This document shows positions 31,912 through 36,825 of a stretch of DNA of 40,000 nt, one piece after another. Location of the stretch: contig NZ_FNCA01000006.1 in assembly GCF_900100715.1 (NCBI RefSeq), positions 152,058 through 192,057 on the forward strand. Reading direction: 5' to 3'. A program made the translations under genes and the position numbers. The notes below the pieces were generated by a model. That model did no database searches, was not told the DNA's origin, and saw nothing but the letters and a program-made list of their open reading frames with translations. This stretch comes from Methanolobus vulcani. GTDB taxonomy: Archaea; Halobacteriota; Methanosarcinia; Methanosarcinales; Methanosarcinaceae. Within the stretch, counting starts at the first letter, position 1. The number at the start of each line of letters is the position of its first letter.

Positions 31912-33165
31912 TTAATCAGTTTCCACTTCCACGGGATGTTCAGAAATCATAGGCGTTTTCTCAATGATTCCCATCACATTGACAATTCCAAATACAATTC
32001 CAAGACATATTCCTGTAATTCCAAGGAAAGCATAGGCATCATAGAGTGTTCCTGTTTTCAGAATTGGCTGGATCACTAGTGGACTTGCCAGTTGTCCGAG
32101 GAAAAGCACAGTGGTAAATCCGGAAAATATCTTTCCGCGTGAATCCTCGGGTGCAATCCTTCCAAGCCAGCTAAGGTTTGTGGTGTTTATGATACCAAAA
32201 GCAATTCCTGTTATTATCAGTCCGGCTATAAGCGTAAGCATATCAGGTGCTATCGAGAGAATGAATACGCCTGCACCCATTATTATGAAGAAGAAAAGAT
32301 TCATCTTCATTTCTGTGAGGAATCCTGATACTTTTACCTGTCCAAGCGCTCCAACAGTTCCGAAAAGTCCTGGAATTGATATCAAGGCACCAATTAGAAG
32401 TGCTGATGTTATTCCTTTTTCGTCCAGTACGAATGGAAGTTTTGTTGGTACTGAGAAGAACAGCACCATTAGTGTGAATGTAGCAACATAGATAAGAGCA
32501 ATACTTTTGAGTGGCAGTTCCTTTTCTTTAAAGTCTTTTTGAACATTTTCGTTTCTATTATGTGAAGCATGTTGCTCATTTTTCTTCTTGCCGCTAAGGG
32601 AGAGCATAGCTCCCGGAATTATCAGTAGTGCGATAAGGTAGATATAAAAAGGTGCATGCCAGCTGATATCTGCAAGAGCACCGCCTGCTACTTCAAGAAC
32701 CACGGCTCCAAAACCCATACATGCAGATTGCAGTCCTATCTTTTTCTTAAGCTCGGCACCGGAATAGTTGTCTGCTAAAAGGGCGGTGGCACATATTGTC
32801 ATTCCTGCGATACCGATTCCAAGTAATATCCTGAAGGCAAGTATGAGGTAGAGTGAAGTAATAAAAGCACCTGTGGCTCCTACAAGCGCAAAGATAGCAA
32901 GTGCTATCATGAGCATGTTCTTCCTGCTGTATTTGTCAGCAAGTATTCCTACGAAAGGTGAACTGATGATAATTCCAAGTGCAGGAAGTGTGACTACCAT
33001 GGAAACCAGAAGACCTGCATCAGGCACGTCAGCAAAAAAATTCAGCATCTCCGGCAGTGCCGGTGCAACAGCAGCTGAACCCATGATGGTAAGCATGGAT
33101 ACACTTAGGATGACTATGAGCTTTAAAGTCTCATTTTTTTGTTTTATGTCGGACTGATCATTCAT
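31912..33165 (-). CDS. MFS transporter
   Basis: About 12 hydrophobic segments. The ATG at 33165 overlaps the marR stop in an ATGA arrangement, which suggests translational coupling. Confidence 0.8.
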   Translation of the reverse strand: MNDQSDIKQKNETLKLIVILSVSMLTIMGSAAVAPALPEMLNFFADVPDAGLLVSMVVTLPALGIIISSPFVGILADKYSRKNMLMIALAIFALVGATGAFITSLYLILAFRILLGIGIAGMTICATALLADNYSGAELKKKIGLQSACMGFGAVVLEVAGGALADISWHAPFYIYLIALLIIPGAMLSLSGKKKNEQHASHNRNENVQKDFKEKELPLKSIALIYVATFTLMVLFFSVPTKLPFVLDEKGITSALLIGALISIPGLFGTVGALGQVKVSGFLTEMKMNLFFFIIMGAGVFILSIAPDMLTLIAGLIITGIAFGIINTTNLSWLGRIAPEDSRGKIFSGFTTVLFLGQLASPLVIQPILKTGTLYDAYAFLGITGICLGIVFGIVNVMGIIEKTPMISEHPVEVETD

Positions 33166-33638
33166 TGCTGATCCTTTCCGGGAAATCCTTTCCATTTTTT
33201 ATCACCGTTTTCATATGCAGCTTTGTAACTGTTTTCCGATATTCTGTAAAGTAATAATTTTGCCTGTTTTCTCTCTTCATCAGAGAGTCCTGAGAATGCA
33301 GCTTCTTCCCATTCTCTGTCTATTTTCACGACATCAGGAATGAGTTTATTACCTGTTTCCGTCAGGTAAAGCTTTACAGCCCTGCGGTTGTTTTCATCCG
33401 TGATACGCTTGACAATGCCCTTCTCTTCAAGTACATTGACCGCCCGTGCAATACTTCCTTTGTCAATGAGCAGTATTCCGGCAAGATGATCCTGCGTGAT
33501 ACCCTGCTTATCAGCGAGCACCATGAGTACGAAGAACTGACCTGCTGAGAGACCTAGTTCTTTCATTTTGCGGTTTATTCTCACAAAATGACTGCGATAG
33601 GTCATTGAGATAAATGCTCCGAGAGGGATATCGTCCAT
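33162..33638 (-). CDS. MarR family transcriptional regulator
   Basis: wHTH LSAGQFFVLMVLADKQGITQDHLAGILLIDKGSIARAVNVLEEKGIVKR. The ATG at 33638 (MDDIPLG) has GAGGAG upstream; the track start at 33683 is less likely. Confidence 0.8.
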   Translation of the reverse strand: MDDIPLGAFISMTYRSHFVRINRKMKELGLSAGQFFVLMVLADKQGITQDHLAGILLIDKGSIARAVNVLEEKGIVKRITDENNRRAVKLYLTETGNKLIPDVVKIDREWEEAAFSGLSDEERKQAKLLLYRISENSYKAAYENGDKKWKGFPGKDQQ

Positions 33639-33653
33639 ATTTTTCTCCTCATA

Positions 33654-33690
33654 ATTGACAGTTGCCAATACAACTGTTGTCATGACAACA
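33654..33690. promoter_or_regulatory. Candidate MarR operator: inverted repeat plus perfect 16-bp palindrome
   Basis: ACAGTTG (33658-33664) and CAACTGT (33671-33677) form an inverted repeat. TGTTGTCATGACAACA (33675-33690) is a perfect palindrome. ATTGACAG recurs at 33654-33661 and 33718-33725. Confidence 0.45.
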
Positions 33691-33780
33691 ATAATGATAG
33701 GTTGAGTATTTAAGCATATTGACAGACTCTCAAATAAAAATCAAAACTTACAAGGGCTTTAATAATCATACAATAAATTC

Positions 33781-34302
33781 ATGAAAATAGCCATTCTCCT
33801 TTTTGATAATTTCACTGCACTTGATATAATAGGTCCATATGAAGTTCTGGCCAAAATGCCGGGAGCTGAAATCTCTTTTGTCGGACACGAAAAGAGAGAA
33901 TATGCAGATTCCTATGGACTTAAGCTTTCAGCCGGATATTCAATAGATGAACTGACGCAGGCCGATGTATTATTAATTCCGGGAGGATTTGGTATAGACA
34001 AACTACTGGATAATAGCGAAATACTTGACTGGATACGCAAGGTTGACAGTACCACAAAATGGATCACATCGGTGTGCTCTGGTTCCCTGCTGCTGGCGCA
34101 GGCAGTATTACTGGACGGAAAAAAATGCACTACACACTGGAGACGCAAGGAACAATTGCGTCAGTACAATGTTAATGTTGTTGATGAGAGATATATTAAA
34201 GATGGCAAGTACATTACATCAGCCGGTGTTTCTGCAGGAATTGATATGGCATTGTATCTTGTGAGTAAGATTGCAGGAGAAATGGCTGCTAAGATGATAT
34301 AG
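33781..34302 (+). CDS. DJ-1/PfpI family protein (class I glutamine-amidotransferase-like); ends at an in-frame TAG with a conserved-looking continuation to 34389
   Basis: Nucleophile-elbow Cys in WITSVCSGSLLLA. After the TAG at 34300-34302 the same frame reads LGIEYDPQPPYDCASPEKVSAEMLERLK, then TAA at 34387-34389. Confidence 0.8.
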   Translation: MKIAILLFDNFTALDIIGPYEVLAKMPGAEISFVGHEKREYADSYGLKLSAGYSIDELTQADVLLIPGGFGIDKLLDNSEILDWIRKVDSTTKWITSVCSGSLLLAQAVLLDGKKCTTHWRRKEQLRQYNVNVVDERYIKDGKYITSAGVSAGIDMALYLVSKIAGEMAAKMI

Positions 34303-34420
34303 CTTGGAATTGAGTATGATCCTCAGCCGCCATATGATTGTGCTTCACCGGAGAAGGTATCAGCAGAGATGCTGGAAAGGTTGAAGTAATTTCATTGAAT
34401 ATTGTCAGGAAGAAAAAATT

Positions 34421-35137
34421 TTAGTTACTTTTCCGTTTCTCAAAGCATTTCCTGAACTTCTCAAGTGAAAAAGGCTTTCCATGTCCCGGATAAAAAATGC
34501 TGCAGCCAGTTGAAAGAAGTTTCTCCCAGCTTTTGATAAGATCCTCTTCATCATTAGCAAAAGGCGGATAAACAGTTCCAGGAATCAGATTAAAAAGCGT
34601 ATCACCAACAATTGCGGACTCATTATTGATTATCACGCAAATGGAACCGGAAGTATGGCCCGGTGTGTGAATTATACTGACAGATAGTTCAGGTTTAGAA
34701 AGGTCATATTCTTCTTCAATTATAATGTCCGGTTCAACAGGAGTAAATCTGCCGCTCCTGGAAAATAATTTATTTCCGGCTTTACTGAGGATCTTAAAAG
34801 GCAGCATTGTACCTTCAGGAAAAAGTGTATATCCTTTTCTCAGGTAAACTACTTCATCTCGGTGACTTAAAACCTTTGCACCGCTTTTTTCTTTTATCTC
34901 AGCAAGATGTCCTACATGATCGTAATGGGCATGGGTAACGATAATGTAATCTATATCAGTAATTTGAAGATTGTTTTGTTTTAGAGCTTGTTCTAAATTG
35001 TGAATGTTTTTGGAAGAACCGGTATCGATAAGAAAAACTAAATCAGGATTTGATACAAGATAAGCATTGGATTTTCCCATGTGAATGGGAGTTATGTTGT
35101 AAGTTTTGCTTTGTTCTGTCATTAAATCCCACTTCAA
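34421..35137 (-). CDS. MBL-fold metallo-hydrolase
   Basis: Contains the HxHxDH motif (THAHYDHVGH) and a later HTPGHT. 238 aa, with an alternative start at 35122. Confidence 0.85.
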   Translation of the reverse strand: MKWDLMTEQSKTYNITPIHMGKSNAYLVSNPDLVFLIDTGSSKNIHNLEQALKQNNLQITDIDYIIVTHAHYDHVGHLAEIKEKSGAKVLSHRDEVVYLRKGYTLFPEGTMLPFKILSKAGNKLFSRSGRFTPVEPDIIIEEEYDLSKPELSVSIIHTPGHTSGSICVIINNESAIVGDTLFNLIPGTVYPPFANDEEDLIKSWEKLLSTGCSIFYPGHGKPFSLEKFRKCFEKRKSN

Positions 35138-35262
35138 TATGAGATTGTTTTGATATTACAAAAAATATTGTGGTTGATCATTAATTGTTAAAAAATTTAA
35201 AAATCTGGAATATAGATGCTTAAGAGCATCTATTATTCTTTATATTCTCTTAGACGTAATTG

Positions 35263-36825
35263 TCAGTAGTTAACAGCCTTTTTCACCGTTGATATCACCT
35301 TCTCAAATTCATCCTCATCCGGCACATGCTTTGCAAATTCAATAAGACTGCAAAGTTCCAGACATTCTTCAACTTCTTTCCAGTCCTTACCTGTCATTTT
35401 CAGGTGGTGGATCAATTCTGCATTTGTCACTTCTTTTCTGAGTCCATAGAAATGACTCAGGTATAGCCTCAGAGCCCGGGCAGCAGTTCCATATGCATCT
35501 TCTGTTTGTCCATCTTCATAGAGGCTAGCTGATTTATCTACAAGTTCCCTTGCTTCTTTCCTGAAATCGAAGATCTCTTTCACAGGTGCAACATCAACTG
35601 CAACGGGAGTTTCCTCTGCTTTCTTTGGTTTGTATTTGTTGTAGGCCAGATAAGCAAGAGCAAGAATAAGCAAAGCTCCGATAGCATACAGTGGATAATT
35701 ATTTCGTTCCCTGTCCCTGACAAGTTCCACGCTATCCACACTATTGTTTACGAATCTGGCATTGATCTGGGCTGTTTCGTTCGCTGAATTCTCATATTGT
35801 ATCTGAAGGTCAGTTGCGTTGCCACTTCGTGAGAAGGTTGAATCTGTTTCTGTGAAACCGTAATTCTGCAGTTCCTTCAGGTACTTCTGATAATCCTTGT
35901 TCTGAGCAAGTATATCTCTTAAGTTCTGCCGTTCCTCAGCAGTATCTTTCTGAAGATTTGTTATTGTTCCATTATCCATTTCTCCCTGGAGAGTCGCAGT
36001 GTCACCATTTTGTTTTTCATAATTTGCCGTGAAGGTTCCGGTGTTATTTGTCGATGGATTAACACTGACATCAGTCAAGTTGTAACCCATATCTGTCAAT
36101 TCCTGGTTTGCCTTCTGGAAATCCTCATTTGAGGCAAGATTCTGCTGGAACTCCTGCTTCATTTGTTGTTGTTGCTGTATCTGCTGCTCCATTTGTGATT
36201 TCAGGGCAGAAGTGTCCTGATCCATCTGGTTATTCTGTGCAGCCTGCTGAGAGGTTTGTGTAGAAGACTGCGTGGAGGATTGCTGGTTGGCTAACTGCTG
36301 CATTGCCTGTTGCATTTGCTGTTCCTGTTGTGCAAAAGGGTCAGTTGACTGCGATGAGGACGCATCCTGAGATGAACTCTGGATTGGGTTTGAATTGTTC
36401 TGGATCTCTGATTCATTATCTACAAAATGTATCAGTATGTTCAGAGTCACAGCTTTAGTTCCATTTTCATCGTAATTGAAAGTCAGCGACACCTTCAAGG
36501 TCTCAGGATCATTGCTGGTCCCAAAACCGAGATTTGTTGCCGAGTCTCCGGCAGGCACTTGGAAACTTGTTGATTTTGAATTGGAACTGGAAACGTGTAC
36601 GGAACCTGTGTTCATCTCCTGGGTGAAAGTGGCCTGTAATATTCCATTTATGTCTGTTCCGTAGGAATTGTTCATATAGAGAGGAACGTATGCTTGCTCT
36701 CCTGTAAGGAAATAGTATTCATCCTGCGGTAGCGTGAATGTGATATCTTTTGCAGATACCACCGGTACCAGCATAAGGAAAGATACCATAACGAAGAGAG
36801 ATAATGCTATATTTTTCCTGTTCAT
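35263..36825 (-). CDS. BatD-like membrane protein with Gln-rich low-complexity region and cytoplasmic helical tail
   Basis: N-terminal signal/TM helix, a beta-rich ectodomain, a Q-rich stretch (aa ~140-230), two ~60-aa internal repeats, a TM helix (LYAIGALLILALAYLAY) and a C-terminal helical domain. Its start overlaps the vWA gene stop (ATGA). Confidence 0.55.
   Translation of the reverse strand: MNRKNIALSLFVMVSFLMLVPVVSAKDITFTLPQDEYYFLTGEQAYVPLYMNNSYGTDINGILQATFTQEMNTGSVHVSSSNSKSTSFQVPAGDSATNLGFGTSNDPETLKVSLTFNYDENGTKAVTLNILIHFVDNESEIQNNSNPIQSSSQDASSSQSTDPFAQQEQQMQQAMQQLANQQSSTQSSTQTSQQAAQNNQMDQDTSALKSQMEQQIQQQQQMKQEFQQNLASNEDFQKANQELTDMGYNLTDVSVNPSTNNTGTFTANYEKQNGDTATLQGEMDNGTITNLQKDTAEERQNLRDILAQNKDYQKYLKELQNYGFTETDSTFSRSGNATDLQIQYENSANETAQINARFVNNSVDSVELVRDRERNNYPLYAIGALLILALAYLAYNKYKPKKAEETPVAVDVAPVKEIFDFRKEARELVDKSASLYEDGQTEDAYGTAARALRLYLSHFYGLRKEVTNAELIHHLKMTGKDWKEVEECLELCSLIEFAKHVPDEDEFEKVISTVKKAVNY

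Follow-up and report, generated by a model that had tools for sequence, protein, structure and literature searches.

An in-frame amber codon at an invariant glutamine position of an isocyanide-hydratase-like DJ-1/PfpI gene in Methanolobus vulcani

Introduction

What does a gene produce when an amber codon interrupts its conserved frame in an archaeon that can decode UAG as pyrrolysine (Pyl)? The question is raised by a DJ-1/PfpI family gene in a 40,000-nucleotide stretch of the Methanolobus vulcani genome (contig NZ_FNCA01000006.1), hereinafter the window, to which all coordinates without a prefix refer. The open reading frame at 33781-34302 has 173 codons and stops at TAG; with read-through of this codon, the full frame would encode 202 amino acids (aa). 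The product resembles isocyanide hydratase (ICH), an enzyme that hydrates isocyanides to N-formamides. A truncated protein, a Pyl-containing protein, both of these, or no useful product at all could be the outcome, and we address these possibilities through the homology of the encoded protein, the decoding capacity of the genome, the history of the TAG allele and the selection that has acted on the gene.

The locus

The features of the locus are as follows.

31912-33195: MFS transporter gene, located after the MarR gene (ORF listing, Pfam labels on syntenic contigs)
33162..33683, minus strand: MarR-family regulator gene, divergent (Pfam labels on syntenic contigs, ORF listing)
33781..34299, plus strand: DJ-1/PfpI gene, codons 1-173, containing the complete DJ-1_PfpI core of Pfam as well as Asp15 and Cys99, the nucleophile
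34300..34302, plus strand: in-frame TAG, codon 174, at the site of an invariant Gln halfway along the predicted helix 167-179; candidate for ambiguous decoding as stop or pyrrolysine
34303..34386, plus strand: 28-codon tail, the conserved C-terminus of the family, comprising the last part of helix I, Tyr179, the EYDP.PP linker and the final helix
34387..34389, plus strand: TAA, terminal stop of the full-length frame; the CAG-bearing orthologue ends at the same position
34421..35137, minus strand: MBL-fold hydrolase gene, convergent, a synteny anchor shared with the CAG-bearing sister locus

As stated in a first-pass annotation of the window, the ORF ends at the TAG (34300-34302) and the frame then remains open for 28 codons up to a TAA. 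Open 28-codon extensions past the stop are found in 17-21% of the long ORFs in this genome, whichever stop codon is considered, so that the open frame after the TAG, taken alone, is no evidence. The 20 longest cases of a TAG followed by an open extension are mostly adjacent genes that share a frame, the exceptions being two mtbB genes and one possible PAS kinase. The convergent MBL-fold hydrolase gene is to be regarded as a native Methanolobus gene; its product is 75-81% identical to its closest named homologues, all of which come from Methanolobus species.

Homology on both sides of the amber codon

The Pfam domain PF01965 (DJ-1_PfpI) is recognized over residues 1-162 of the product with a score of 118.1 bits (cut-off 26.6). 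The 202-aa read-through product aligns with the structures of ICH from Pseudomonas fluorescens over residues 2-200 (E 3.9e-42). In this alignment, C99, which is invariant among 17 aligned sequences, corresponds to Cys101 of ICH and D15 corresponds to Asp17, whereas the other active-site positions are occupied by S100 (Thr102 in ICH), A148 (Gly150) and V150 (Ile152). In the ICH motif QLqlEYaPaPPF, it is the Gln that lies opposite the TAG; this motif and Y179, the equivalent of Tyr181, are encoded only if the TAG is read through.

The tail belongs to the family at large. A search of ~5.8 billion protein clusters yielded more than 100 homologues (202-222 aa, one of 245 aa) that are 67-86% identical to the read-through protein and cover 97-100% of its length. 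Apart from the 173-aa cluster of the window itself, all 120 matches listed contain the tail, as does ICH, and among the matches listed from these ~5.8 billion clusters there is no homologue that naturally ends near position 173. Residues Q174, L175, E178, Y179, D180, P181, P183 and P184 are invariant in the 17-sequence alignment. The tail alone is identical to the C-terminus of a Bacteroidales homologue in 19 of 28 positions (68%; pairwise E 4e-13). Thus, it is the homology of the tail, not the openness of the frame, that exceeds the chance expectation. The first-pass annotation had taken the continuation for the genuine C-terminus of the protein and had placed the TAG at a conserved Gln. Both proposals hold, given that the QL.IEYDP.PPF/Y motif is found in ICH and in all close homologues and that the 17-sequence alignment has an invariant Gln at this position. 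As judged by its sequence, the locus is one 202-codon gene for an ICH-like DJ-1/PfpI protein, a bacterial-type detoxification enzyme.

Pyrrolysine decoding capacity

The first-pass annotation had pointed to the pyl genes as a check on its reading of the codon, and all of them are found in the genome: pylS, pylB, pylC and pylD score above the curated cut-offs, tRNA-Pyl(CUA) is present, and one in-frame TAG is contained in each of three mtmB genes, two mtbB genes and one mttB gene. The TAG codon also ends 10.5% of the long ORFs (a crude set, n=2,343), which implies that the release factor still acts on UAG. Because UAG stands for Pyl in the methylamine methyltransferases, yet TAG ends about one tenth of the genes, codon 174 is ambiguous.

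No PYLIS-like fold was detected in the 104 nt from the TAG onward: the minimum free energy of -24.3 kcal/mol is no better than that of shuffled sequences (z = -0.53), so that no PYLIS-like element follows the TAG. In Methanosarcina acetivorans, UAG is read both as a stop and as Pyl with no signal required, the RdmS protein of this organism is made in a long and a short form, and read-through of UAG in Pyl-decoding relatives is independent of context (PMC12626013). Ribosome profiling indicates that the outcome at UAG depends on the supply of Pyl-tRNA (PMC13663744).

Several other features of the decoding system and of amber-containing genes were observed in this genome. The same C-terminal domain of pylS starts two contigs (G000:C4:6-713 and G000:C16:6-713), and contig ends (those of C9 and C2) also divide pylB, pylC and pylD; the pyl cluster thus lies in or beside repeats that broke the assembly. 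In addition to a 72-nt tRNA-Pyl on contig C19, ARAGORN reports a second 'tRNA-Pyl' with the anticodon CUA (86 nt, G000:C8:77982-78067), which may be a false call. An MtmB paralogue of 485 aa (G000:C19:22968-24305, minus strand; PF05369, 490 bits) lacks an in-frame TAG, has Met at the pyrrolysine position of MtmB and is ~33% identical to the product of the neighbouring mtmB gene. Finally, the frame at G000:C20:259-2640 (minus strand, L107) is open for 303 aa, followed by a TAG and then by 490 aa; PAS, PAS_4 and HisKA domains lie after the TAG, and this frame may be that of a sensor kinase similar to RdmS, interrupted by an amber codon.

Origin of the gene

The gene appears to be an accessory one. 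It is absent from 34 of the 34 other sampled species of the genus (E <= 1e-20), and elsewhere in the family only paralogues of ~36% identity are found, in 15 of the 34 genomes of one genus and in 1 of 11 of another. Among species-representative genomes, it is Bacteroidales metagenome-assembled genomes (MAGs) that contain the nearest relatives, at most 74% identical; a protein-seeded scan of metagenomes likewise retrieved only bacterial homologues of at most 74% identity. The closest full-length relative, P0003, which is represented in five Logan assemblies (loci L014-L018), is 86% identical. The sister locus has the same convergent MBL-fold hydrolase neighbour (seen in L014-L017), with an MBL protein 75% identical to that of the window, and we infer that P0003 belongs to another species of the Methanolobus group. 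In the maximum-likelihood tree, the window protein pairs with P0003 (support 100/98), and this pair is nested within a clade (94/91) that otherwise consists of bacterial sequences, mostly from Bacteroidota, and that stands apart from the paralogues of the family. The simplest reading of this pattern is that the gene was acquired horizontally from bacteria by an ancestor of two Methanolobus-like lineages. The GC content of the DJ-1 gene (0.42) is already host-like.

Origin and spread of the amber codon

In the sister gene, codon 174 is CAG, so that the TAG must have come by a single C-to-T transition in the lineage of the window. The first-pass annotation had suggested exactly this one-step change from CAG, and the nearest orthologue indeed reads CAG. 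The codon before the TAG is ATA (34297-34299), and ATA likewise stands ahead of the Pyl codon of one mtbB gene and three mtmB genes (C9, C16, C19). The sister reads ATA CAG, so that ATA is ancestral and the match is probably a coincidence.

The TAG is common to all strains of the species that could be sampled. The 173-aa cluster of the window consists of four protein variants annotated at 171-173 aa, which means that the true 202-codon gene is missed by annotation pipelines. The genome and contigs from 10 metagenome samples comprise five nucleotide haplotypes, with TAG at codon 174 in each. In five of the five, the tail is open and encodes the same protein sequence, the single tail substitution, in codon 182, being synonymous. 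No full-length allele with more than 86% identity was found among the ~5.8 billion protein clusters. The TAG is therefore the only allele seen in the species and is fixed across its species-level diversity. A sequencing or assembly artefact, or a mutation private to one isolate, was also considered and can be practically dismissed, since four protein variants and independently assembled contigs from 10 samples all show the same TAG. The most distant haplotype, L013, has flanking DNA 95.8% identical to that of the window. The mutation was described as possibly 'fresh' in the first-pass annotation, and this part does not stand, because strains that are up to ~4% apart in their flanking DNA have the TAG in common.

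The MFS-MarR-DJ-1-MBL region (31912-36825 in the window, loci L004-L013) is a recombination mosaic among strains: in a given strain pair, some genes are identical and their neighbours differ with pS of up to 0.07-0.26. The DJ-1 segment is always the least diverse part of this mosaic (pS 0.007-0.045). Between the window and L013, the DJ-1 gene has diverged by 1.8% and the flanks by ~4%.

Selection before and after the appearance of the amber codon

Compared with the CAG sister, omega is 0.094 for the part upstream of the TAG (dS 0.74) and 0.067 for the tail (dS 0.96). The low value for the tail clearly implies that the tail remained protein-coding during most of the period since the lineages split.

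The evolution after the appearance of the TAG was followed among the TAG haplotypes, which differ by 8 non-synonymous and 7 synonymous changes over the whole gene (8 and 6 in the upstream part). The pN/pS of the upstream part, 0.39, is the highest in the neighbourhood, the four flanking genes having values of 0.09-0.26 (Fisher p = 0.075), and between the window and L013 the omega of the DJ-1 gene is 0.25. The non-synonymous fraction, 8 of 14-15 changes, is weakly below the neutral expectation of ~0.77 (p = 0.076). These post-TAG statistics rest on 15 substitutions, and their p values of about 0.06-0.08 are significant neither way. No frameshift and no second stop codon was found in the five TAG haplotypes. 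One haplotype has G153E at an invariant Gly, and L013 has an in-frame deletion of 2 codons.

When the changes are polarised by 15 bacterial sequences, 7 derived amino-acid changes are assigned to the TAG lineage and 15 to the sister, and the terminal branches in the tree are 0.073 and 0.11, respectively. Three of the 7 changes in the TAG lineage (F185Y, G188A and P194S) fall in the 28-aa tail, at positions that are invariant in the outgroup, and the sister has one derived change in the tail (Fisher p = 0.058 for the contrast between tail and upstream part). Taken together, these comparisons, all of them underpowered, suggest that constraint has been partly relaxed since the TAG arose (pN/pS of 0.25-0.4 against 0.09 in the long term), without being abolished.

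Consequences for the protein

In the AlphaFold2 model (mean pLDDT 86.9), Q174 is located in the middle of helix 167-179 and the tail has low confidence in the monomer, as would fit a segment packed on the partner subunit. ICH is an obligate homodimer (CASP15 account), in which the end of helix I, Tyr181 and the IJ linker touch the other protomer beside its active-site helix (bioRxiv 10.1101/524751). A stop at codon 174 would remove half of helix I along with these elements of the dimer interface, and the 173-aa form would thus probably lack ICH-type activity. Residues A170, Q174, L175, E178 and Y179, all of them invariant, share one helical face; Pyl at position 174 would place a bulky side chain on this conserved face and may be disruptive, in which case the read-through product, too, may be inactive.

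Interpretation of the amber allele

The explanation that we favour, with modest confidence, is that codon 174 is a leaky nonsense allele that was fixed by drift and is decoded ambiguously, as a stop or as Pyl, with reduced function as the result. Under this explanation, the CAG of the invariant Gln would have changed to TAG by one transition and then become the sole allele in the species. Some ribosomes would terminate at UAG174, giving a 173-aa product with half of helix I and the interface tail missing, and others would insert Pyl at this position and complete the 202-aa protein, so that the gene probably makes both a truncated and a full-length Pyl-containing protein. In the apparent absence of a dedicated recoding signal, the ratio of the two would follow the supply of Pyl-tRNA relative to the release factor. 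The net effect would be Pyl by neutral evolution, namely, a lowered output of the enzyme and a partly relaxed constraint at a site that was not designed for Pyl. The anatomy of the locus, the homology, the direction of the change from CAG to TAG, its fixation and the pyl system are shown by the data, whereas we infer that UAG174 is read through and how far each product is functional.

In a first competing explanation, the full-length form would be the functional product, with Pyl174 tolerated or useful and the gene kept by selection. Fixation of the TAG in all sampled strains with an open tail of unchanged protein sequence, a post-TAG omega of 0.25-0.4, which is below 1, the smaller number of amino-acid changes than in the CAG sister (7 vs 15) along with the shorter branch, and the confirmation, in related genera, of Pyl peptides from many proteins other than methyltransferases (bioRxiv 10.1101/2024.09.30.615893) all point in this direction. 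However, the helix concerned belongs to the dimer interface and the site, an invariant Gln, lies on its conserved face, the constraint is three to four times weaker than its long-term value, conserved positions are affected by G153E in one haplotype and by the in-frame deletion in another, and 3 of the 7 lineage-specific changes hit outgroup-invariant positions of the tail; moreover, the 84 nt of the tail have undergone 1 change, too few for post-TAG selection on the tail to be demonstrated. We consider a selected Pyl protein rather unlikely, if still to be taken seriously. Also unlikely, and ranked behind it, is an early pseudogene, in which the TAG would in effect be a knockout, the read-through product useless and decay just starting. 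This would be compatible with a nonsense codon at an invariant residue, with the loss upon truncation of Tyr179 and the linker, which in the obligate ICH dimer contact the partner protomer, and with the pN/pS of 0.39, the maximum in the neighbourhood; G153E, the 2-codon deletion and the three tail substitutions at invariant positions fit decay as well, and an acquired accessory gene that is missing in 34 sampled congeners is dispensable. Nevertheless, none of the five haplotypes carries a second disabling lesion and the sole indel is in frame, the non-synonymous fraction lies below the neutral one (p about 0.08), the gene has diverged less than its flanks between the window and L013 (1.8% against ~4%), and relatives read UAG through regardless of context (PMC12626013).

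The TAG could also be a switch tied to the supply of Pyl-tRNA, or the imine of Pyl could add chemistry to the interface, the allele having been fixed by a sweep; we regard this as improbable. Were there such a switch, only read-through would give active enzyme, given that the codon lies in the helix that forms the obligate dimer interface, and the level of this enzyme would follow the supply of Pyl-tRNA relative to demand (growth on methanol vs methylamine). Under the interface version, the reactive imine side chain would be new chemistry beside the active site of the partner, and in either case the sweep would account both for the fixed allele and for a gene that is unusually low in diversity compared with its flanks. 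Under a further reading, the TAG would by now be a true stop, the 173-aa protein functional and the tail 3' untranslated sequence. The Pfam core (residues 1-162) is indeed complete before the TAG, PfpI-type members of the superfamily can be as short as 166 aa, and TAG does serve as a terminator in this genome. Against this reading, the tail is retained in ICH and in all 120 listed homologues outside the cluster of the window, the cut falls in the middle of a helix in a region used by the obligate ICH dimer, and no homologue ends near position 173, all of which makes a true stop very improbable.

Comparison with known systems

The term 'Category 1' has been applied to internal TAG genes in which homology flanks the TAG on either side and the extension is longer than 15 aa (Kivenson et al., bioRxiv 10.1101/2024.09.30.615893). 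The present gene fits this definition: the pyl set is present, identity is at least 30% both before and after the TAG (67-86% over the full length, 68% for the tail) and the extension has 28 aa. Outside the methyltransferases, Pyl proteins are mostly singletons restricted to one lineage, probably the result of neutral mutation, such as the tRNA-His guanylyltransferase of M. acetivorans (bioRxiv 10.1101/2024.09.30.615893). The main text of that study mentions no DJ-1/PfpI or ICH-like protein (bioRxiv 10.1101/2024.09.30.615893). The gene in the window, a candidate Pyl gene, shares with Category 1 genes a Pyl-encoding host, an extension above 15 aa and a TAG that is confined to one lineage, with an ordinary codon in the relatives; unlike in the Category 1 description, the TAG here replaces an invariant residue in a dimer-interface helix. 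Singleton cases of internal TAG are already known in such archaea, and no new mechanism is revealed: the gene is one more example from a Pyl-decoding archaeon of an amber codon that has replaced an ordinary but conserved residue. The case is nonetheless a convenient one, with the CAG sister as a natural control, an allele that is fixed across strains, and very high-resolution structures and kinetic assays available for ICH, and it could be used to gauge the tolerance to random Pyl substitution and the partition of UAG read-through in Methanolobus.

A close parallel on the side of decoding is the sensor kinase RdmS of Methanosarcina acetivorans (PMC12626013), likewise a non-essential gene with an internal UAG in Methanosarcinaceae. 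For RdmS, the truncated and the Pyl-containing full-length forms were demonstrated experimentally, with no dedicated signal, whereas dual products are predicted for the DJ-1 gene; furthermore, the Pyl position of RdmS is conserved across genera and the DJ-1 TAG is confined to one species-level lineage, and the protein families differ. The proposal of the first-pass annotation that the product is truncated, Pyl-containing or both agrees with the behaviour of RdmS (PMC12626013) and is supported to that extent. MtmB, MtbB and MttB, in which UAG is decoded as Pyl in the same genome as the DJ-1 gene, are canonical Pyl proteins: their Pyl is catalytic and occupies a fixed, conserved position, with a downstream PYLIS in mtmB, whereas the DJ-1 TAG replaces a Gln and is followed by no such structure.

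On the side of the protein, ICH/InhA (Pseudomonas fluorescens, Ralstonia solanacearum; PDB 3NON, 6NI5 and others) matches the window protein from end to end, and the two have in common the Cys nucleophile, the Asp and the C-terminal QL..EY.P.PP motif including the Tyr181 equivalent. In contrast to ICH, the window protein is ~26 residues shorter at the C-terminus and has Ala in place of Gly150, Ser in place of Thr102 and the TAG in place of the Gln.
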